The notes under the pieces are model-generated. The model had not been told where the DNA came from and did no database searches. It worked only from the letters and a program-made list of their open reading frames with translations. A program made the position numbers and the translations under genes. From NCBI GenBank assembly GCA_030583865.1, contig CP129479.1, forward strand, positions 1,476,744-1,540,743: a stretch of DNA of 64,000 nucleotides, read 5' to 3'. The stretch is from Thermodesulfobacteriota bacterium. Its GTDB lineage: Bacteria; Desulfobacterota; GWC2-55-46. Below are positions 2,837 through 55,245 of this stretch, in pieces; position 1 is the stretch's first letter; each line of letters opens with the position of its first letter.

Positions 2837-2905
2837 TGGGGGAAACTTTCTGTAGAAAGGTTCCCCCAGAACCCCTGACTTTTAGTTCCTGAGAAGACCC
2901 CCAAG
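2837..2905. repeat. palindromic repeat family C copy 1
   Basis: gggggaaactttctgtagaaaggttccccc + agttcctgagaagaccccca; related to 29797-29900. Confidence 0.6.
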
Positions 2906-2922: not shown

Positions 2923-4464
2923 CTAAAGCACAGGTGTGTCGCGCTTCTCCTTCTTCATGTGCTCGAGCCTGTTGAGCGCGTTTATGTAGGCCTTGGCGCT
3001 CGCGACAATTATGTCGGTGTGGGAGCCCTGGCCGAGCACGATGTGCCCGCCCTCCTGCACCCTCACGGAGACCTCTCCCTGCGCGTCGGTGCCGCCCGTG
3101 ATGGCGTTTACCGAGTATTTGAGGAGCCTGCTCTTCGTGCCGGTAAGCGAGGCTATGGTGTTGTAGGCCGCGTCCACCGGCCCGTCTCCTGTGCCTGTTC
3201 CGCTTTCGGTCCTGCCGTCGACCTCCATCTCGACCTCGGCCCTGGGGGGAGTATCGGTCCCGCTCTGCACCTTGAGCTTGACGAGCCTGTACCTGTCAGG
3301 CACCTCGACCCTCAGCACCTCGTCCTGCACTATGGCCTCGAGGTCCTCGTCGAAGACCTCCTTTTTGAGGTCGGCGAGCCGTTTGAAGGTCTCGAAGGCC
3401 CTCTCGAGGTTCTCCTGCGAAAGGTCGTAGCCCATCTCCGAGAGCCTCGTCTTGAAGGCGTGGCGGCCGGAATGCTTGCCGAGGACCAGCTTCGAGCGGG
3501 ATATGCCGACAGACTCGGGCCGCATTATCTCGTAGGTGGACTTGTCCTTGAGGAGGCCGTCCTGGTGTATGCCGGACTCGTGCGCAAAGGCGTTGTCGCC
3601 TACTATGGCCTTGTTTGGCTGCACCATTATGCCGGTTATGCCGCTTACGAGCCTGCTCGCGGGGAATATCTGCTCCGTTGTGATGCCGGTCTCGAGGCCG
3701 AGGACGTCCTTCCTCGTCCTGAGTATCATGACTATCTCTTCGAGGGAGGCGTTACCGGCCCTCTCGCCTATGCCGTTTATGGTGCACTCTACCTGCCTCG
3801 CGCCGTTCACGACCGCGGCAAGGGAGTTAGCAACCGCCAATCCCAGGTCGTTATGGCAATGAACGGATATTACCGCCCTGTCGATGTTCCTTACGTTGTC
3901 GCGTATGCCCTTTATGAGCGCGCCGAACTGGTCCGGGAGCGCATAGCCGACTGTGTCGGGGATATTAACGGTCCCGGCGCCTGCCTCGATAACGGCTTCT
4001 ATCATCTCGTAAAGGTATGCGGGCTCGGTCCTCGAAGCGTCCATTGCCGAAAACTCGACGTCGTCGACGTGGCCACGCGCCCTCTTGACCATCTCGACCG
4101 CCCTCTCGAGGGCCTCGCTCCGGGTGAGCCTGAACTGGTGCTTCAGGTGTATCTCGGAGGTCGAGATGAAGGTGTGTATCCTGGACCTGGCCGCGCCCTT
4201 TAGCGCGCCCGCCGCGGCGTCTATGTCCTCTGGCTTGCACCTGGCGAGGCTGCATATGACCGGGCCCTCGACCTCGAGCGCGATCCTCCTGACCGAGTCG
4301 AAATCGCCCGGCGAGCTGAAGGCGAAACCCGCCTCTATGACGTCGACCCCGAGCTTCGTAAGCTGCCTTGCTACGGCTATCTTCTCCTCGACGTTCATCG
4401 AGGCGCCCGGCGACTGCTCGCCGTCCCGGAGCGTCGTATCGAATATCCTGACCCTGTTGTCCAT
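2923..4464 (-). CDS. leuA: 2-isopropylmalate synthase
   Basis: 513 aa; [15 protein letters not shown]-terminus; [14 protein letters not shown]; C-terminal LeuA allosteric domain. Confidence 0.92.
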
Positions 4465-7046: not shown

Positions 7047-7090
7047 CTAGTTTTCGCAATCCGTATAGTCGCTTTACGCTTTTAGCTTAT

Positions 7091-7232
7091 GGCAACCTCT
7101 AAAAATCAGAAATTTTTCCTGCAATCAAGGAAGGGCGGGAATAAAAAGCGGAGCATATATGTGAATATGTGAGCATTTTTATTCACGCCCTGACGCAGAG
7201 TCCGGGTAAAATAGCAATTTTTAGAGGTTGCC
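7091..7232 (+). mobile_element. MITE family B copy 1 (16-bp TIR GGCAACCTCTAAAAAT ... ATTTTTAGAGGTTGCC)
   Basis: Perfect 16-bp terminal inverted repeats; flanked by TTAT/TTAT; between ilvC start and ilvN stop. Confidence 0.85.
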
Positions 7233-7718
7233 TTATCTCTGCTTGGGGCTCCGGGCCATTGCCACCCTTCCGGTCCGGACGATCTCCTTTATGCCGAATG
7301 GGCGGAGTAGCTCGGTAATGGCCCGTATCTTCTCCTCGTCCCCGGTTATCTCTATCGTGTAGGTCCGGGAGCTTACGTCAACGACCTTGGCCCTGAATAT
7401 GTCGACTATCGAGAGTATCTCGGCCCTGGTCTCGGCGTTGAGGTTCACCTTTATGAGGGCGAGCTCCCGCTCGATATGCTCCTCGCCGGTGAAGTCGTAT
7501 ACCTTGATGACGTTCACGAGCTTGTTCAATTGCTTGTTTATCTGCTCGAGGACTTTGTCGTCGCCGCTCGTGACGATGGTCATCCGGGATATCTTCGGGT
7601 CGAAGGTCTCGGCCACCGAGAGGCTCTCGATATTGAAGCCCCGCCCGGAGAAAAGTCCCGATATGCGCGATAGCACGCCGAACTCGTTGGTTACAAGGAC
7701 CGATATCGTATGACGCAC
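7233..7718 (-). CDS. ilvN: acetolactate synthase small (regulatory) subunit
   Basis: 161 aa; ACT domain ISVLVTNEFGVLSRISGLFSGRGFNIESL. Confidence 0.9.
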   Translation of the reverse strand: MRHTISVLVTNEFGVLSRISGLFSGRGFNIESLSVAETFDPKISRMTIVTSGDDKVLEQINKQLNKLVNVIKVYDFTGEEHIERELALIKVNLNAETRAEILSIVDIFRAKVVDVSSRTYTIEITGDEEKIRAITELLRPFGIKEIVRTGRVAMARSPKQR

Positions 7719-11370: not shown

Positions 11371-11713
11371 TCAAGCCTCCCTTCCACTTTGAGGTCCCTG
11401 TTCCGGGTCTCCGGCATTTCCCCCTTGCAGGAAACAGGCTCACGACGTTAATAAAAAGTGCTTGTTTTTCAAGGACAAAGCTAATTTTTATAATATCGCA
11501 ACCCGGAGAGCTTGTCAATTTGTTACCAAACCGGCTTTTTTCGGCCTGTTATGGCGGGAAAAATGATTTCTTATAACGCATTCCAGCGCCCAAGTCCATA
11601 AAAAACCCGGCATTAGAATGGAAAAAACGGGGTTTTGGCTGAATCTGGAATATTGTACAGGCTGGAAAAAGCGGTTTTTTTGCGGGGACATGAGTCCCCT
11701 TCACGTTATCCTG

Positions 11714-12436
11714 TTAGCGACCGCTTTTAAGCTCTGCTTCGGATTTCCGGAGGTATATCGGGACGAGCTCCGCCGGAGAGACGGCCTCCGCCGCGTGCTC
11801 GAAAGCCAGGAGCCCTACGTTAGAAGCCCTTATGTGCCAAAGGTGGGGCAAGGCCGCGTACGCGTCCCTGAGCGCCTCGACGAGCATTTCCATGTAAACG
11901 GAAAGGCCGCTCCCCAGGAATACGACTTCCCCCTCAAGCCCCCTCCCCCTTATTTCCCCTATGAGGGCCTCGGGCCGCATCGCCGAATCGGGCATGACCG
12001 CCCTGGGGCGGCCTGACATGGTATCGTAAAGGGCGGTGTATACCTCGCCCTTTCTGGCGTCGAGCACCGGGCAGACCATCCTTGCGGAATAAGGGATGTT
12101 CATGGCGAGCGAGGCGAGGGTCGAAACACCGGCTATCTTTTTCCCCTGCGGCCACGCGAGCCCCTTTAGGGCCGATATGCCGATGCGGAGGCCAGTGAAT
12201 GAGCCCGGGCCGACATCAATGGCGAAGAGGTCTACTTCGTCGAGCCCGCACCCGGCGCTCTCAAGGTGCGCTTCAAGGGACTTAAGGAGCCAGCTGGAAT
12301 GGGTCCCCGCGTCCCCGACGGTCCATTCGGAGATGAGCTTTCTATCTTCGAGGAGGGCTATCGAGCCTGACCGGGACGAGGTATCGATTGAAAGTATCTT
12401 CAGGCAACCTCTAAAAATTAGATAATTTTCCCGCAA
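11714..12436 (-). CDS. tsaB: tRNA threonylcarbamoyladenosine biosynthesis protein TsaB (YeaZ)
   Basis: KILSIDTSSRSGSIALL and VGPGSFTGLRIGIS motifs. The annotated ATG start (12434-12436) lies inside the MITE copy at 12403-12545, so the true start is uncertain. Confidence 0.7.
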   Translation of the reverse strand: MRENYLIFRGCLKILSIDTSSRSGSIALLEDRKLISEWTVGDAGTHSSWLLKSLEAHLESAGCGLDEVDLFAIDVGPGSFTGLRIGISALKGLAWPQGKKIAGVSTLASLAMNIPYSARMVCPVLDARKGEVYTALYDTMSGRPRAVMPDSAMRPEALIGEIRGRGLEGEVVFLGSGLSVYMEMLVEALRDAYAALPHLWHIRASNVGLLAFEHAAEAVSPAELVPIYLRKSEAELKSGR

Positions 12437-12545
12437 TCAAGAAAGGGCGGAAATAAAAAGCGGAGCATATATGTGAATATGTGAGCATTTTTATTCACGT
12501 AACCTACGCAGAGTCCGGGGAAAAGGTCAATTTTCAGAGGTTGCC
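12403..12545 (+). mobile_element. MITE family B copy 2
   Basis: Same termini (1 mismatch); internal segment aaaaagcggagcatatatgtgaatatgtgagcatttttattcacg identical to copy 1; flanked by TTCA/TTCA. Confidence 0.85.
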
Positions 12546-12553
12546 TTCAATGC

Positions 12554-13855: not shown

Positions 13856-13896
13856 TTCCTATCTCAATTCAAGCGTGATTTTGGCGTAAATTTCTG

Positions 13897-13998
13897 GCAG
13901 CCCCTAAAAATCAGAGATCTTCACCCGAATCAAGGAAGGTCGGGGTTATTCCCGGCCTGACGCAGAGTCGGGGAAAAGATCAATTCTTAGAAGTTGCA
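13897..13998. mobile_element. MITE family B copy 3 (shorter, degenerate)
   Basis: ggcagcccctaaaaatcag ... caattcttagaagttgc; shares gcctgacgcagagtcgggg core with copy 1. Confidence 0.55.
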
Positions 13999-14033
13999 TT
14001 TATTATACAATAAATTGCCGGCCAGTGTCGCGC

Positions 14034-28529: not shown

Positions 28530-29738
28530 TCAGCATACCGGGTGCTCGCCCCTGGCCAGCTCTTCGGTAAACGAAGGTATCCGCAAAAGGAACTCGTCGA
28601 TTATCTTCCTCACTCCCTTTTCGTAACGGTCCCTGCCGGCCCTGCCGTCGGGTATCACCTGCACAAAGACCTGCTTCGGCTCGTCTATTGGCCTCCCGAT
28701 CTCGCTCAGGAGCCAGACGGATACCTCCTTGACGCCATTGACGCTCTTGTATATCTCGGAAGCCATGAGGTGCGACAGTATCGAGTATATCTTCCCCACG
28801 TGGCTTACCGGATTTTTTCCGGCTGCCGCCTCGGTGCCCATCGGGCGGTTGAGGGAAATGACCCCGTTTACGCGGTTCCCTCTCCCCACCTGGCCCGAGT
28901 CCGCGTCCTCGGCGGAGGTGCCGAGAAGCGTGAGGTATACGCCCCTGGTGCCCTGTCCTTTCATGTCGAGAGAATTGAGGTTGAGAGTGATTTCAGAAAA
29001 CGGGAAACCCGACAGGAAGTCCCTGATCGCGGTATGCATCTCCTTTTTCTTTTTGAAGTAGGCAGCCTCGCTCTGTATAAGACCCGCCAAAAGCGGGCAG
29101 GCGACCGTCAAATCGAGCTCGCTTCCAGTCCTTACGCCCATCACCTTCACGTCCGAGCCTGCCTCGGGGAAACGAAGCTTAAAGGCCTCGGAATTTATGA
29201 AGCGCTCGGTGGCCAGGACCGCGCGCTCGGCGGTGGTAAGCGGCGCGTATCCCGCCGCAGCGGAAGTGTCGTTCGCGACCCTCACCCTGCCGCGCCTCTC
29301 GAATATCCCTGCAAGCTCCTCGGAGCCCGGCTGCAGTACGACCCTGACCTTAAGGTGCTCTTGAGGGTCAACGTGCGGGAGGTTCTCGGCTACCCAGGAA
29401 CGGACTGTCCGCTTGACGATATCCTCGACCGGGACGCGTGAGTCGCCAATCCCGTAAGAGGCCCTGTCGCCGACGATTAGCTCCATTGGCTTCAAAACCT
29501 TTCCGCTGCCGAAGCCCTTTTCCACCTGCCCTGCCACGAGCAGGCCCTTGTCGATGTTATGATGGAGGACGGCGCCGAATCTTTCCATGTATTCGCGGCT
29601 CAAGGCAACCGAAATCCTATCCATGACAGCGTCGCAGATGGAGTCGGGGTGCCCGGTCCCCTTCCTCTCGACTATCTCCACGGCCTGCTCGGAAACGGCC
29701 ATGTTAGTAGAGACCTCGACGGTCTTCTGCATTGTCAC
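28530..29738 (-). CDS. S-adenosylmethionine synthetase, archaeal type (PF01941 family)
   Basis: 402 aa; near-collinear with Methanocaldococcus MAT: EIVERKGTGHPDSICD, VANDTS, YLTLLGTSAE, GRGNRVNG, GKNPVSHVGKIY. Confidence 0.8.
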   Translation of the reverse strand: MTMQKTVEVSTNMAVSEQAVEIVERKGTGHPDSICDAVMDRISVALSREYMERFGAVLHHNIDKGLLVAGQVEKGFGSGKVLKPMELIVGDRASYGIGDSRVPVEDIVKRTVRSWVAENLPHVDPQEHLKVRVVLQPGSEELAGIFERRGRVRVANDTSAAAGYAPLTTAERAVLATERFINSEAFKLRFPEAGSDVKVMGVRTGSELDLTVACPLLAGLIQSEAAYFKKKKEMHTAIRDFLSGFPFSEITLNLNSLDMKGQGTRGVYLTLLGTSAEDADSGQVGRGNRVNGVISLNRPMGTEAAAGKNPVSHVGKIYSILSHLMASEIYKSVNGVKEVSVWLLSEIGRPIDEPKQVFVQVIPDGRAGRDRYEKGVRKIIDEFLLRIPSFTEELARGEHPVC

Positions 29739-29796
29739 CCGGTCCCCGTTGAATTAGGCCGAAAAGGCGAGCCGGCAGGTTACTGAAAAGCCCCCT

Positions 29797-29900
29797 TTGG
29801 GGGAAACTTTCTATAGAAAGTTTCCCCCCACCCCCCCTTCAAAGATTAGTTGTTCCTGAGATGACCCCCATGAATGGGGGTCATCTCAGGAACAACTAAA
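29797..29900. repeat. palindromic repeat family C copy 2
   Basis: Perfect palindrome ggaaactttctatagaaagtttcc (29802-29825) flanked by C/G runs; perfect 24-bp-stem hairpin tagttgttcctgagatgaccccca / tgggggtcatctcaggaacaacta (29848-29898). Sits in the 5' region of the archaeal-type MAT gene. Confidence 0.7.
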
Positions 29901-30039
29901 AACTTTTGGAGAGAGGTTAGGTCCAATGGATGCGAACGTGATACATGAGGCTATTCGCCTCCTGAGCCCTATGAGCATCCAATGGCTCTAGAACCTTTTT
30001 ATAAAAAGGTCCTCTCAAGGGTTTTATGCACCTGCAGCT

Positions 30040-30651
30040 TCACTTTTTCGGCTTCTTCGAGTACCTTTCCATCTTGCTGTATATGCAGCCGCAGTATTTC
30101 TGCCTGTAGAGGCCGAGGGCCCTGGAGGCGTCGATTCCATCCTGCCAGAAGGCCCTGAAATCCTCATAAAGGAAGAGTATGCCGTACTTTCCGGCTAATT
30201 CAATGCCTGCGCTCCTTATGGCCCCGTGGTCCTGGTACCTGCTGTAGAGAAGAGAGGATGTGAAGACGGGAAACCCGAGCGAGCTCGCGGCCCGCGCCGT
30301 AGCCTCAAGCCTCAGGTAATAGCAGTATTCGCACCTCTTCCCCGTTTGCGGGAAACCTGGGCCAGCGTGCTCTTTCATGCCCTTGAGGAACGTTGAGGGC
30401 CTGTATTCCTCGTCATAGATGACGTTCAGGGAGAGGTGGCGGGCAAGCTCCTTTGCTGCGGCAATCCTTTTCCTGAATTCCGAAAGGGGGTGGATGTTCG
30501 GGTTATGGAAGAAACCTGTGACCTCGGCCTTGCCGTCAAGGAGTGATTTTAGCGGCATGATGGAGCATGGGCCGCAGCAGATGTGCGCAAGCACTACCGC
30601 ATTGCCGCCGCCTATCGCAGGTAGGTCCTTTATGGATATGGCCTCTTTCAT
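30040..30651 (-). CDS. queH: epoxyqueuosine reductase QueH (DUF208)
   Basis: 203 aa; HICCGPCS motif and C-terminal CxxC. Confidence 0.75.
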   Translation of the reverse strand: MKEAISIKDLPAIGGGNAVVLAHICCGPCSIMPLKSLLDGKAEVTGFFHNPNIHPLSEFRKRIAAAKELARHLSLNVIYDEEYRPSTFLKGMKEHAGPGFPQTGKRCEYCYYLRLEATARAASSLGFPVFTSSLLYSRYQDHGAIRSAGIELAGKYGILFLYEDFRAFWQDGIDASRALGLYRQKYCGCIYSKMERYSKKPKK

Positions 30652-30731
30652 TGGAGACCCGTTGTTTTGGATTTGGAATTGGCGTACTTTCGTGTACGCC
30701 GGAGTGTGCAGATGGATTTTTCAGCAGCCTG

Positions 30732-31763
30732 TTAAAACAGCCCGTCATGCTTCCCCGCGCTCGCCGTCTTCCTGTAGGGCCTTCCCAGGTGCGCGTACGC
30801 GAGCTCCGTAGCGACCCTGCCCCTGGGGGTCCTGTTGAGATACCCCTCCTGCAGGAGGTAGGGCTCGTGGAGGTCCTCGATGGCGTCCTTCTCTTCATGG
30901 AGCGCGGATGCAAGCGCCTCTATGCCCACCGGCCCTCCGCCGAACTTGTCTATTATGGTGAGGAGCATCCTCCTGTCCATCTTGTCGAACCCTTTCGAGT
31001 CTATCTCGAGCATGGAGAGCGCGCCTGAGGCGACGTCCCTTGTTATGACGCCCTTTGCCTTGACCTGGGCAAAGTCCCTCACCCGCCGCAAGAGCCGGTT
31101 CGCCACCCTCGGGGTACCCCTCGACCTCCCGGCTATCTCCTCCGCGCCGTCGTCGGTTATCTCGACATCGAGTATGGAGGCCGAGCGCGCGACTATGGTC
31201 TTGAGCTCGGAAGCGGCATAGAAATCGAACCTCAGCATCACGCCGAACCTGTCCCTCAGGGGCGAGGTAAGGAGCCCGGCCCTGGTAGTCGCGCCGATGA
31301 GGGTGAACTTCGGAAGCTCTATCTTCACCGACCTCGCCGAAGGCCCCTGGCCTATCAGGATATCTATGTGGTAGTCCTCCATTGCCGGGTACAGTATCTC
31401 CTCGACGGCCGGGGTAAGCCTGTGTATCTCGTCTATGAAGAAGACGTCCCTGTCCTCGATGTTGGTGAGCATGGCCGCAAGGTCGCCCGCCTTGTCTATG
31501 ACAGGGCCCGAGGAGGCCTTTATCTGGCTCCCGAGCTCGTTGGCGATTATCATTGCCATCGTGGTCTTGCCGAGCCCCGGGGGGCCGTAGAAAAGCACAT
31601 GGTCGAGCGCCTCTCCCCTGCCCTTCGCGGCCTGTATGAAGACCTTGAGGTTCTCCTTGAGCTTCTCCTGCCCTATGAAGTCGTCCAGGAGCCTGGGCCG
31701 GAGCGTAGCCTCTAACTCGTCTTCTTTAAGCTTCGCGGGCGTTATCTCGCGCTCGTCTTCCAT
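30732..31763 (-). CDS. ruvB: Holliday junction branch migration ATPase RuvB
   Basis: 343 aa; Walker [10 protein letters not shown]. Confidence 0.93.
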
Positions 31764-31767
31764 TCGT

Positions 31768-32379
31768 TCATGTCCTTGTCTTTGAAATGAGCCTGAGCGA
31801 TTCCTTCAATACCTCTTCGAAGGCAGGCTCGTCGCCGAGCGAGCGGGCCGCCTTCTTTGCCGCCTCCTCGGCGGGCACGCTCCTGTAGCCGAGGTTCTCG
31901 AGGGCAGACACAACGTCGCTTACGAGCGGGTCCTTGCCGGACGCGGGCTCTTCCTGAGGCGCGCCCTTGAAGGATATTGAGCCTATCTTGTCCTTAAGCT
32001 CCAGGATGAGCCTCTCGGACGATTTTGCCCCGATACCCGGGATTGAGCCGAGCCGCGCCTTGTCCGACGAGCCTATGGCCTGTATGAGGTCGCCTACCGC
32101 GACACCTGAGAGGATGTTCCGGGCAAGCTTCGGACCCACGCCCGAGACGCTTATCAGGAGCTGGAAGACCTCCTTCTCCTCCTGGGTAAGAAACCCGTAC
32201 AGCTGTATGGCGTCCTCCCTCAAATGGGTATGGACCCGGAGGCTTACTGTCTCGCCGTTTTGAGGGAGGGTGTAGAAAGTGGACAGCGGGATGAAGACCT
32301 CGTAGCCCACCCCGCCGGTCTCGACGACCACCGATTCGGTCGTCTTGTGTATTATGCGCCCTTTTATGCTGGCGATCAT
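31768..32379 (-). CDS. ruvA: Holliday junction DNA helicase RuvA
   Basis: 203 aa; MIASIKG...GVGYEV start. Confidence 0.9.
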
Positions 32380-32906
32380 ATGGTGCGCCTGGAGGGTAAA
32401 ACTGCGGCCTCCCCTTTTATGCGGAGGCTGGAAGAATGGCTGTTAAGGTGGCAGATGGCGAGGGCTAGGGCGTCGGTCGCATCATTTTTTCCTGCGATAA
32501 GCCCGGTCTTGAGGAGAAGCCCCACCATCTTCTGCACGTCTTCCTTTGCGGCCCTGCCGTTTCCGGTCACGGCCTGCTTGACCGAGGCAGGGGAATACTC
32601 GTAGACCGGTATGCCGAACTCGGCGACGGTGACGAGCAGGGCCCCCCTCGCCTGCCCGAGCGTAATGGCGCTCCTCGCGTTCTTCGCGTAAAAGACCGAT
32701 TCGAGCGAAACGGCTTCGGGCCTGAACTCTTTTATTATCTCCCGTAGCCTCGTGGATATGCAGAGGAGCCTGGCGGAAAGCGGAAGCCCGCCACCGGGAG
32801 ATATGTCCCCGTGGCAGACGCGGACGAGCGCATTGCCCTTTCTCTCCACTATTCCGTATCCTGTAGAGACGCTTCCGGGGTCGATTCCCAGGACCATAGT
32901 TTTCAC
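32376..32906 (-). CDS. ruvC: crossover junction endodeoxyribonuclease RuvC
   Basis: 176 aa; LGIDPGS...GYG; overlaps ruvA start by 4 nt. Confidence 0.9.
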   Translation of the reverse strand: MKTMVLGIDPGSVSTGYGIVERKGNALVRVCHGDISPGGGLPLSARLLCISTRLREIIKEFRPEAVSLESVFYAKNARSAITLGQARGALLVTVAEFGIPVYEYSPASVKQAVTGNGRAAKEDVQKMVGLLLKTGLIAGKNDATDALALAICHLNSHSSSLRIKGEAAVLPSRRTI

Positions 32907-35340: not shown

Positions 35341-35500
35341 GCCTATCAGGACGTTGAAAAAGTCTTTCCTGGACTTTTTCAACCACGGCCTGGCCGGAAT
35401 GAATCCGTCCAAGCCTCATAAATTGCTCGACATTTTCAGCCATTGCAATTTGGCAATCCATCCGTGGATTGCTTAGCAGGGTGTTTTTCAACACCCTGCT
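35341..35500 (+). repeat. repeat family A, full copy (hairpin 1 at 35353-35383, hairpin 2 at 35475-35500)
   Basis: ~90% identical to revcomp of 55078-55245. Terminal hairpins gttgaaaaagtc..ggactttttcaac and agcagggtgtttttcaacaccctgct. Lies between convergent stop codons. Confidence 0.85.
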
Positions 35501-41245: not shown

Positions 41246-41439
41246 GGAAGTATTCGGCTTTGCTGCTTTTTATAATGTGGAAATTAATTCCTTTCAGGAA
41301 GAAGAACCCGAATCTTGCCCTGGTTCTCCGGCCTGAAAAGAATGATACCGGATTCCATTATCAAAAGCAATGACAGCGGCCCTGGCAAAGAGGGATGAGC
41401 GCATGACGAGTAGCCCCGCCGTTTGAGGGACTGACTAAA

Positions 41440-41580
41440 GGCAATCTCTAAAAATCAACCTTTTACCCGGATTCCGTTCAGACGTGGATGAAAATGCACA
41501 CATATTTATCATGCATGTATGCATCGATTTTTATTCCCGGCCTTTATTGCGGGAAGAATCTCAAATTATCAGAGGTTGCT
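41440..41580. mobile_element. MITE family B copy 4 (diverged)
   Basis: ggcaatctctaaaaatcaa ... aattatcagaggttgct termini; different internal sequence. Confidence 0.55.
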
Positions 41581-52066: not shown

Positions 52067-52401
52067 GATAATTAGAGCTCAGGATCCGGGACCATCCCCC
52101 CAGTGCCGTCCCTGCTCGACCAACTCACAATAAAAAAACCGTCACGGCACCGCATCCAGCAATCGTAAATGCTGAATGTTTGGCCCAGACGGTCGGCAAG
52201 CGCACTGTTATTCCCGCTCCCCGGTGGTTGCCCACCTTGATTCCGTCAGTTACGGGAAAATTTTATGGGGAATTTATTAGAAACATCTTAATCCAGGACC
52301 GCGGGCCTTGTCAAGGATTAATCGAATTGAAATCCCGGTGCGGAAGCCTTTCCGGCGTACCCTGCCAAAGCGCAGGGGACATTGCAAATTGCCCGGCGCG
52401 C

Positions 52402-55077: not shown

Positions 55078-55245
55078 TTTAGCAGGGTGTTGAAAAAACA
55101 CCCTGCTAAGCAATCCACGGATGGATTGCCAAATTGCGAAGACTATCCAGGTCGAGCAATTTGTAAGGCTTGGACGGATTCATTCCGGCCAAGCCGTGGT
55201 TGAAAAAGTCCAGGAAGGACTTTTTCAACATCCTGTTAGAGGAAA
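55078..55245 (-). repeat. repeat family A, full copy in inverted orientation
   Basis: Reverse complement matches 35341-35500; 50 bp upstream of the cytochrome c start. Confidence 0.85.

Follow-up and report, generated by a model that had tools for sequence, protein, structure and literature searches.

Palindromes in the queH-MAT and leuA-leuC spacers of a Thermodesulfobacteriota genome as probable copies of a mobile REPIN/MITE-like repeat

In the 64,000-nt stretch of Thermodesulfobacteriota DNA analyzed here (hereafter, the window), a long perfect palindrome followed by a perfect hairpin lies in the 5' region of the gene for an archaeal-type SAM synthetase (MAT), and a related, shorter copy lies between leuA and leuC. 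Are these palindromes regulatory sites, with a SAM- or methionine-responsive role at MAT, as the original prediction proposed, or are they copies of a dispersed repeat? Our comparisons indicate that both features are probably copies of a mobile REPIN/MITE-like repeat and not components of a Met/SAM regulator. To judge from the sequences, they belong to a new family of such mobile palindromic repeats that is absent from Rfam and from the searchable literature.

Two copies in the window and their parts

The 24-nt palindrome reported originally at 29802-29825, GGAAACTTTCTATAGAAAGTTTCC, was recovered with 0 mismatches, and a copy with two mismatches is present at 2841-2864; the number of matches expected in dinucleotide shuffles of the window is 0.00. 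The palindrome (hereafter, P1) extends beyond these 24 nt and is perfect over 30 nt (29799-29828). The adjacent hairpin, initially described as a perfect 24-bp stem at 29848-29898, is likewise real and longer: 54 nt at 29846-29899, with two 26-nt arms (29846-29871 and 29874-29899) that are 100% complementary and separated by a 2-nt gap. The shorter relative placed at 2837-2905 also exists and spans 2819-2917, but contains only one hairpin arm, TTCCTGAGAAGACCCCCA, located beside the palindrome at 2886-2903. A profile-HMM (nhmmer) search of the 64 kb yielded exactly two copies, A in the queH-MAT spacer and B in the leuA-leuC spacer.

Copy A extends past the region noted at first to a second palindrome, P2 (GAACCTTTTTATAAAAAGGTCC at 29991-30012), and occupies nearly the whole 301-nt spacer between queH (30040-30651) and MAT (28530-29738), both encoded on the minus strand. 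Its outer left arm, CTGAAAAGCCCCCTT (29783-29797), which in the predicted fold pairs with 30020-30039, is common to copy B and to a copy between ilvN and ilvC in a close relative, L133 (CTTTTCAG..ACCTGCC, on the other strand). The arm is followed by P1 (29798-29828), consisting of T, GGGGGAAACTTTCTA and TAGAAAGTTTCCCCC, the core common to all members of the family, and by the left tail CACCCCCCCTTCAAAGATT on the plus strand (29829-29847), a diverged form of the family consensus CCCCCTTCAAAGACTTTTAG. Beyond the central hairpin (29846-29899), the sequence of which, TTCCTGAGAWGACCCCC, is specific to a subfamily, the right tail AAACTTTTGGAGAGAGG (29900-29916, plus strand; family consensus GAAAGTTTTTGGAGAGAG) mirrors the left one. 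P2 in its full extent, TAGAACCTTTTTATAAAAAGGTCCTCTCAAG (29989-30019; family consensus TTGAGAGAACCTTTTTAYAAAAAGGTTCTCTCAA), has its left arm interrupted by an extra hairpin-forming insert of 72 nt (CCAATGGATGC...GCATCCAATGG; 29917-29988), and the outer right arm, GGTTTTATGCACCTGCAGCT (30020-30039), abuts the queH stop codon (30040-30042). The 72-nt insert is absent from canonical copies; two other loci (L019 and L092) have inserts of their own at a comparable position, and in L030 another element is inserted into the tail. Thus, the elements nest in one another. On the mRNA-sense (minus) strand, copy A contains four G5-G7 runs within 85 nt (GGGGG, GGGGGGG, GGGGGG and GGGGG; 29790-29875), which could fold as a G-quadruplex that competes with the hairpins.

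Copy B is internally deleted. The outer arms (CTGCTGRAAAGG) are both retained, as are P1 and the left half of the central hairpin; the right arm of that hairpin, the right tail and P2 are gone. What remains is the outer left arm CTGCTGGAAAAGGACT (2819-2834), an inverted repeat of 2904-2917; P1 with its outer stem, TCTGGGGGAAACTTTCTGTAGAAAGGTTCCCCCAGA (2835-2870), containing one mismatched pair; the left tail together with the left arm of the central hairpin, ACCCCTGACTTT and TAGTTCCTGAGAAGACCCCCA (2871-2903, plus strand); and the outer right arm AGGCCTTTCAGCAG (2904-2917), which ends 5 nt short of the leuA stop codon. On the minus strand, leuA (2923-4464) is followed by the element and then by leuC. 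The assertion that both copies lie on the 5' side of minus-strand biosynthetic genes is correct, yet each of them lies also on the 3' side of another gene because the neighbors in both cases are co-directional on that strand. The gene order across 28530-32906 is ruvC-ruvA-ruvB-queH-MAT-dksA-like; this context is bacterial apart from MAT, which belongs to the archaeal type (PF01941).

The window harbors other repeats as well. One family, a textbook MITE with terminal inverted repeats GGCAACCTCTAAAAAT...ATTTTTAGAGGTTGCC (hereafter, family 2), is present at 7083-7234, 12395-12547, 13891-14000 and 41435-41549; comparison with the empty sites in L133 reveals 5-bp target duplications, TGAAG at 12.4 kb and RAAAT at 13.9 kb. 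A further family, with copies of about 150 nt that are about 90% identical (1-48, 35343-35498 and 55094-55239; in L133, 2629-2732 and 19156-19313), contains the palindromes GGCAATCC..GGATTGCC and CAGGGTGTT..AACACCCTG; one of its L133 copies occupies the spacer that matches window positions ~11704-11727, which contains no copy in the window. For the window, Rfam yielded a single above-threshold family, a ZMP/ZTP riboswitch (RF01750) at 52176-52263 on the minus strand (63.5 bits compared with a gathering score of 39).

Distribution, common plan and gain or loss between relatives

An exact-pattern scan with GGGAAACTTTCNNNNGAAAGNNTCCC, using one genome per species, identified the core pattern in at least 120 loci from at least 39 genomes, compared with a chance expectation of about 1 estimated from the 20 specified bases and the size of the collection. 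The motif CTTCAAAGACTTT was not part of the scan pattern and so represents an unselected flanking motif; of 123 cores, 76 have it a few bases away on one side and not on the other, and 1 more has it on both. Among the matches listed, the 39 genomes range in G+C content from 32% to 67%, with up to 16 loci per genome; the carriers, again among the matches listed, include groundwater Deltaproteobacteria/Thermodesulfobacteriota MAGs, Bilophila wadsworthia and its relatives, Desulfovibrio and Mailhella, as well as Oscillospiraceae, Ruminococcus and other Clostridia. Copies from a Planctomycetota MAG are about 330 bp long and have longer inverted repeats. A few isolated palindromes without the tail (in Ignavibacteriae and some other genomes) may be unrelated. 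Bilophila wadsworthia, a human-gut pathobiont, carries the element in abundance, as do gut Oscillospiraceae and Ruminococcus and groundwater Thermodesulfobacteriota.

Aligned in the same orientation, the copies share a common plan: a copy-specific outer stem, P1, the tail CCCCCTTCAAAGACTTTTAG, a central hairpin, the mirrored tail GAAAGTTTTTGGAGAGAG and P2, TTGAGAGAACCTTTTTAYAAAAAGGTTCTCTCAA. The central hairpin is variable in sequence and near-perfect in pairing (TTCC-N-CCCCC, loop, GGGGG-N-GGAA). P1 with its tail and P2 with its tail are two versions of one hairpin-plus-tail unit, of which many intermediate variants exist, and the full architecture is common to the copies from Thermodesulfobacteriota, Firmicutes and Planctomycetota. 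Module HMMs run on the fetched loci detected about 1.5-2 extra copies per 10 kb in some genomes (Bilophila and the MAG SMAG_U8218). For metagenomes, the pattern TTCCTGAGANGACCCCC was too short: 120 loci were fetched (about 670 kb in all), and the module HMMs gave no match in 118 of these, which are probably chance matches and were used as a negative control.

Several observations on individual loci illustrate how the copies vary. At one locus represented in two metagenome samples with identical flanks (L177 168-330 and L192 1868-2031), the 170-nt element differs at about 8 positions, mostly in loops and at paired positions; to judge from this pair, change seems to be faster within the element than around it. 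Two species of Clostridia share an orthologous site (L010 4959-5068 and L042 875-1010) at which P1 and the outer stem are identical; the remainder of the element is present in L042, and L010 has there an ordinary terminator consisting of an A-run, a hairpin and a T-run, so solo hairpin units persist. Some elements are flanked by a long inverted repeat of at least 45 nt (L079 880-1060, L053 7440-7700 and L115 6340-6600; for example, GTAGACTCATCAACYCACCTGTGATAGAT around the L079 copy), and either the palindrome reaches much further in some subfamilies or the element has a tendency to insert at the centers of other palindromic repeats. Short-read contigs of the window's own species stop inside the element at both sites, and many of the Bilophila matches sit at contig ends. 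The practical cost is that short-read assemblies are broken at predictable points.

Searches of the known repertoires detected no relatives. Apart from the ZMP/ZTP riboswitch, which lies elsewhere in the window, Rfam returned no family match for the window at the gathering threshold, for the locus at E-values up to 10 or for nine related loci; at E-values up to 10, the only matches were generic hairpin (miRNA precursor) models far under threshold, and a sub-threshold match to the 'trpB motif' was purely structural. Nothing was found by blastn against plasmids and phages, by an exact-pattern scan of IMG/VR, or, among relevant reports, by searching the literature for the sequence strings and for Bilophila or Desulfovibrio repeats.

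The copies are located at the 3' ends of genes. Resolvable spacers contain 72 elements: the flanking genes are convergent for 30 of these, tandem for 39 and divergent for only 3, compared with 51 convergent, 218 tandem and 85 divergent among the 354 other spacers of the same loci. Convergent spacers are accordingly enriched (p=7e-7) and divergent ones depleted (3/72 vs 85/354, p=4e-5; Fisher test in both cases), and in tandem contexts the element shows no orientation bias (8 vs 8). The clustering near Met/SAM or branched-chain amino-acid genes that would be expected of a dedicated regulatory site was not seen: the 116 nearest proteins are functionally unrelated and map to 124 Pfam families, none of which occurs more than 3 times. 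Clustering of the neighboring ORFs produced a single recurrent cluster, with 9 members, which, judging by the varied distances and genomes, we take as a common protein family. The alternative raised along with the regulatory prediction, that of a REP/MITE-type repeat with scattered copies and no promoter association, is the one that these data support.

Orthologous sites in close relatives differ in the presence of the element. At the queH-MAT site, two relatives with an 88% identical MAT, L131 and L132, have spacers of 39 nt and 82 nt, respectively, neither of which contains the element; L130, a 97% relative, has the element, with 4 nt of P1 deleted and hairpin arms of lower symmetry. The 39-nt distance in relatives suggests that queH and MAT form one operon. 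In L132, the 3' end of the queH frame contains a family-2-like MITE (2385-2445), and the queH product there is longer and has a different C-terminus (213 aa vs 203 aa). From leuA to the conserved leuC start, L133-L137 have about 60-75 nt and lack the element, at LeuA identities of 97% for L133-L135 (including a 1.4-Mb contig), 94% for L136 and 88% for L137. Between ilvN and ilvC, a complete element is present in L133, a different repeat in the window and nothing in L137. A 15-kb alignment of the window with L133, at 92-93.5% nucleotide identity, contains five repeat insertions, from three families, that only one of the two carries. In a cobalamin operon, L043 and L112 show reciprocal presence and absence, with the cobT stop codon of one of the two falling within the P2 stem. 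Thus, the element is quickly gained and lost and is no conserved part of MAT or leu regulation; as these comparisons indicate, the window palindromes were inserted recently, into operons that sister species have in compact form.

The filled and empty pairs at the queH-MAT and leuA-leuC sites are too diverged for target-site duplications to be read. A single clean filled/empty pair, at the L133 ilvN-ilvC site, has an 8-nt direct repeat at the ends of the element (GCGAAAAC/GCGAAAAA), the left one of which may be either a DDE-type duplication or part of the element's own inverted repeat. Across 30 full copies, no consistent target-site duplication was found.

Pairing constraint and competing explanations

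The predicted single-strand fold of the element is a four-way junction, or cloverleaf (z-scores, -11 and -13). Seventeen full copies were aligned, a set in which the invariance of P1 is a consequence of how the copies were found; 96.8% of the cells are paired, and double-sided changes occur in 18 of 35 pairs, compared with 7.6 in shuffles (0/500); slid controls collapse. P2 has compensatory changes in 12 of its 16 pairs and one-sided changes in none. Of 137 hairpin units, 98 are perfect; the mismatches in the others comprise 10 G·T, 11 A·C and 34 of other kinds, and no strand asymmetry was detected in free energy or in G·U counts. Within one genome, complementary central hairpins are copy-specific, and several self-complementary variants of the palindrome coexist. 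Given the compensatory changes, the lack of a G·U excess and the equality of the strands, pairing appears to be required in a strand-symmetric, Watson-Crick-only manner; this constraint would fit DNA hairpins or cruciforms, or arm-to-arm copying, and not an RNA made from one strand. At the level of sequence, these comparisons demonstrate a dispersed, multi-copy family that sits at gene 3' ends, is present or absent at orthologous sites and has Watson-Crick-compensated stems.

Under the mobile-repeat explanation, which we consider probable, two related hairpin units (P1 and P2, each with its tail) are inverted around a hairpin-forming spacer in a REPIN-like architecture, and the single-stranded element would fold as a cloverleaf or four-way junction. 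It would spread as DNA, mobilized in trans by an enzyme encoded elsewhere. When inserted in an operon, it would be transcribed within the mRNA, with no specific tie to MAT or leuC, and would act there at most as a generic stem-loop that causes partial termination or protects 3' ends, as REPs do. No transposase adjoining the elements was found, and no neighboring family recurs beyond the 9-member cluster. A six-frame motif scan of about 0.75 Mb of fetched loci and the window detected no HUH/Y1-like ORF; its only match, a glutamine synthetase, was a false positive. Inverted pairs of units 0.35-3.5 kb apart in the sampled loci revealed no autonomous IS sharing termini; judging by the first residues of the longest ORFs, they enclose apparently ordinary housekeeping genes (an MFS transporter in L024), so no composite transposon is evident.

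Among possible mobilizing enzymes, we tentatively prefer a structure-recognizing transposase of the HUH/Y1 type (RAYT- or IS200-like) acting on single-stranded hairpin DNA, since the conserved parts are internal hairpins rather than termini, no regular duplication is seen and the stems are compensated; the odds for this particular enzyme class are nonetheless somewhat below even. The main alternative, possible but less likely, is a conventional MITE: a deletion derivative of an IS, mobilized by a DDE transposase through binding to the terminal inverted repeats and with duplication of the target site. The arms of the element are indeed long inverted repeats, the Planctomycetota version has terminal inverted repeats of about 110 nt ending in CATRYGCGTCAAC, and the candidate 8-nt duplication at the L133 ilvN-ilvC copy fits a DDE transposase better than a Y1 enzyme; furthermore, family 2 of the window, itself a textbook MITE with 5-bp target duplications, shows that transposases of this kind work, or once worked, in this lineage. 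However, the duplication is not consistent across the 30 full copies, the termini differ between lineages (and the outermost stems, also between copies) whereas the internal hairpin units are conserved, the sampled loci contain no autonomous partner, and a protein that binds duplex termini has no need for copy-specific compensatory changes in the stems. An unlikely but consequential elaboration of the mobile-repeat explanation is that the hairpin-plus-tail unit (R5-A3-C-T3-C-T loop, mirrored, then ..CCYTYCAAARACTTTTRG) is the handle of one structure-specific enzyme. Candidates for it are a domesticated, RAYT-like transposase and a host nuclease, and the enzyme may have been exchanged horizontally or conserved across Thermodesulfobacteriota, Bacillota and Planctomycetota; the central hairpin may then have been co-opted as a portable bidirectional terminator. 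If true, this would be the first REPIN-type system shared between phyla.

Three further explanations compete with mobility, and each appears less probable than a mobile element. The first has MAT and leuC controlled through P1, either as the operator of a dimeric transcription factor or as part of a leader responsive to SAM, methionine or branched-chain amino acids; it would agree with the perfect dyad of P1, its operator-like size, the position of both window copies 5' of biosynthetic genes and the third copy between ilvN and ilvC in L133. Against it, close relatives lack the element at both sites, and their 39-nt queH-MAT spacer is too short for a separate regulatory region to be likely to fit; elsewhere the neighbors are functionally unrelated, and divergent promoter regions are depleted while convergent spacers are enriched. 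Moreover, neither window spacer contains a sigma-70-like promoter match, no Rfam riboswitch or leader reaches the gathering score at the element, and the many self-complementary palindrome variants per genome are not explained by the half-site specificity of one protein. We therefore regard this explanation as extremely improbable, and the SAM/methionine-responsive role suggested by the placement of the palindrome in the MAT 5' region appears refuted by the unrelated neighbors, the divergent depletion and the absence at the relatives' sites. A false regulatory lead is thereby removed: MAT and leuC are not controlled through these palindromes. Equally improbable is a multi-copy family of structured non-coding RNA genes (trans-acting sRNA or ribozyme-like RNA): the very stable conserved fold with covariation would fit, but Rfam offers only generic hairpin models, there are no promoter matches, the covariation makes almost no use of G·U and does not distinguish the strands, many copies are truncated or consist of a solo hairpin, and the orientation relative to genes is random.

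An RNA device that benefits the host and is maintained by selection without mobility, be it a bidirectional terminator, an operon attenuator or a stabilizer of mRNA 3' ends, has more in its favor, although we still consider it improbable. The copies lie at gene 3' ends and often fill the whole spacer between convergent genes; the central hairpin of the Firmicutes copies is placed between an A-run and a T-run, like a bidirectional intrinsic terminator; the coding (minus) strand of copy A has weak terminator-like matches with the tails TAATCTTTGA and CTTTTCAGTA; and P1 is identical at the orthologous sites of the two Clostridia species, with the remainder differing. Yet the element lacks the G·U excess or strand asymmetry expected of a one-strand RNA, shows no orientation bias in tandem contexts, has, in the delta-type copies, no U-tract right after the hairpins, and occurs within tight operons, such as cobT-cobS, where strong termination would be harmful; the rapid gain and loss between close relatives also points to mobility. 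A mobile element could still have an RNA-level role secondarily. On inspection, CRISPR (no array), integron attC sites (housekeeping neighbors and no cassette array) and dif/Xer sites (the element is multi-copy) were ruled out.

Comparison with known elements

Among known elements, the non-autonomous ones derived from IS200/IS605 (PATEs and the like) have subterminal hairpins at both ends that are read as structure, need neither inverted termini nor duplications, and move by single-stranded DNA transposition; however, they are strand-asymmetric and insert by a fixed tetra- or pentanucleotide, and in the element described here neither asymmetry nor a conserved target motif was detected. With MITEs that have long inverted repeats (Correia/NEMIS, ERIC, RUP and family 2 of the window), it shares a length of 100-330 bp, the non-coding character, arms made of inverted repeats, insertion polymorphism between close relatives and co-transcription with neighbors. 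Those MITEs have defined termini and regular target duplications, neither of which is consistent here, where the conserved parts are internal hairpins. Like the enterobacterial REP/BIME sequences, the element consists of stem-loops, lies between convergent genes and inside operons and only rarely in promoter regions, and REPs can affect termination and mRNA stability. REPs, however, have a palindrome that is imperfect and about 35 nt long, form mosaics in which the linkers are defined, serve as binding sites for IHF, gyrase and Pol I, and do not occur beyond related species; the unit sequence and the three-hairpin layout differ here, and no host factor has been linked to the element.

The closest parallels are with REPINs, doublets of REPs that form hairpins and are mobilized by RAYT tyrosine transposases, for example in Pseudomonas fluorescens SBW25 (PMC3116915). 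According to that study, the inverted ends of REPINs are conserved and the spacer need only pair; compensatory changes are common, and the element can also fold as a clover (PMC3116915). The family described here has the same inverted units around a hairpin spacer, compensatory changes in the spacer and a long-hairpin or clover configuration, and is likewise extragenic, non-coding and accompanied by singlet remnants; its copy number is apparently also high, with up to 16 loci per genome among the matches listed and two copies in the window. In classical REPs, a conserved GTAG or CGTC tetranucleotide tags one end of each REP (PMC3733652). No such tag stands beside the palindrome here, where GTAG is only one loop variant among many (CTGTAGAA, CTGAAGAA, CTCCAGAA and others), and the hairpin units, most of which are perfect, are longer (stems average about 18 bp) and each carry a conserved tail of about 20 nt. 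On these sequence features, and with no RAYT linked to the family, membership in REP-RAYT families cannot be claimed.

REPIN-RAYT systems are described as lineage-specific and vertically inherited, in contrast to the family described here, which spans Thermodesulfobacteriota, Firmicutes and Planctomycetota. Given that REPIN systems are described as lineage-bound, the sharing of sequence across three phyla stands out in these comparisons as the one unusual feature of an otherwise REPIN-like element. Together with the strict Watson-Crick compensation of its hairpins, this cross-phylum spread makes the family a test case for REPIN-like movement and for the crossing of phylum boundaries.
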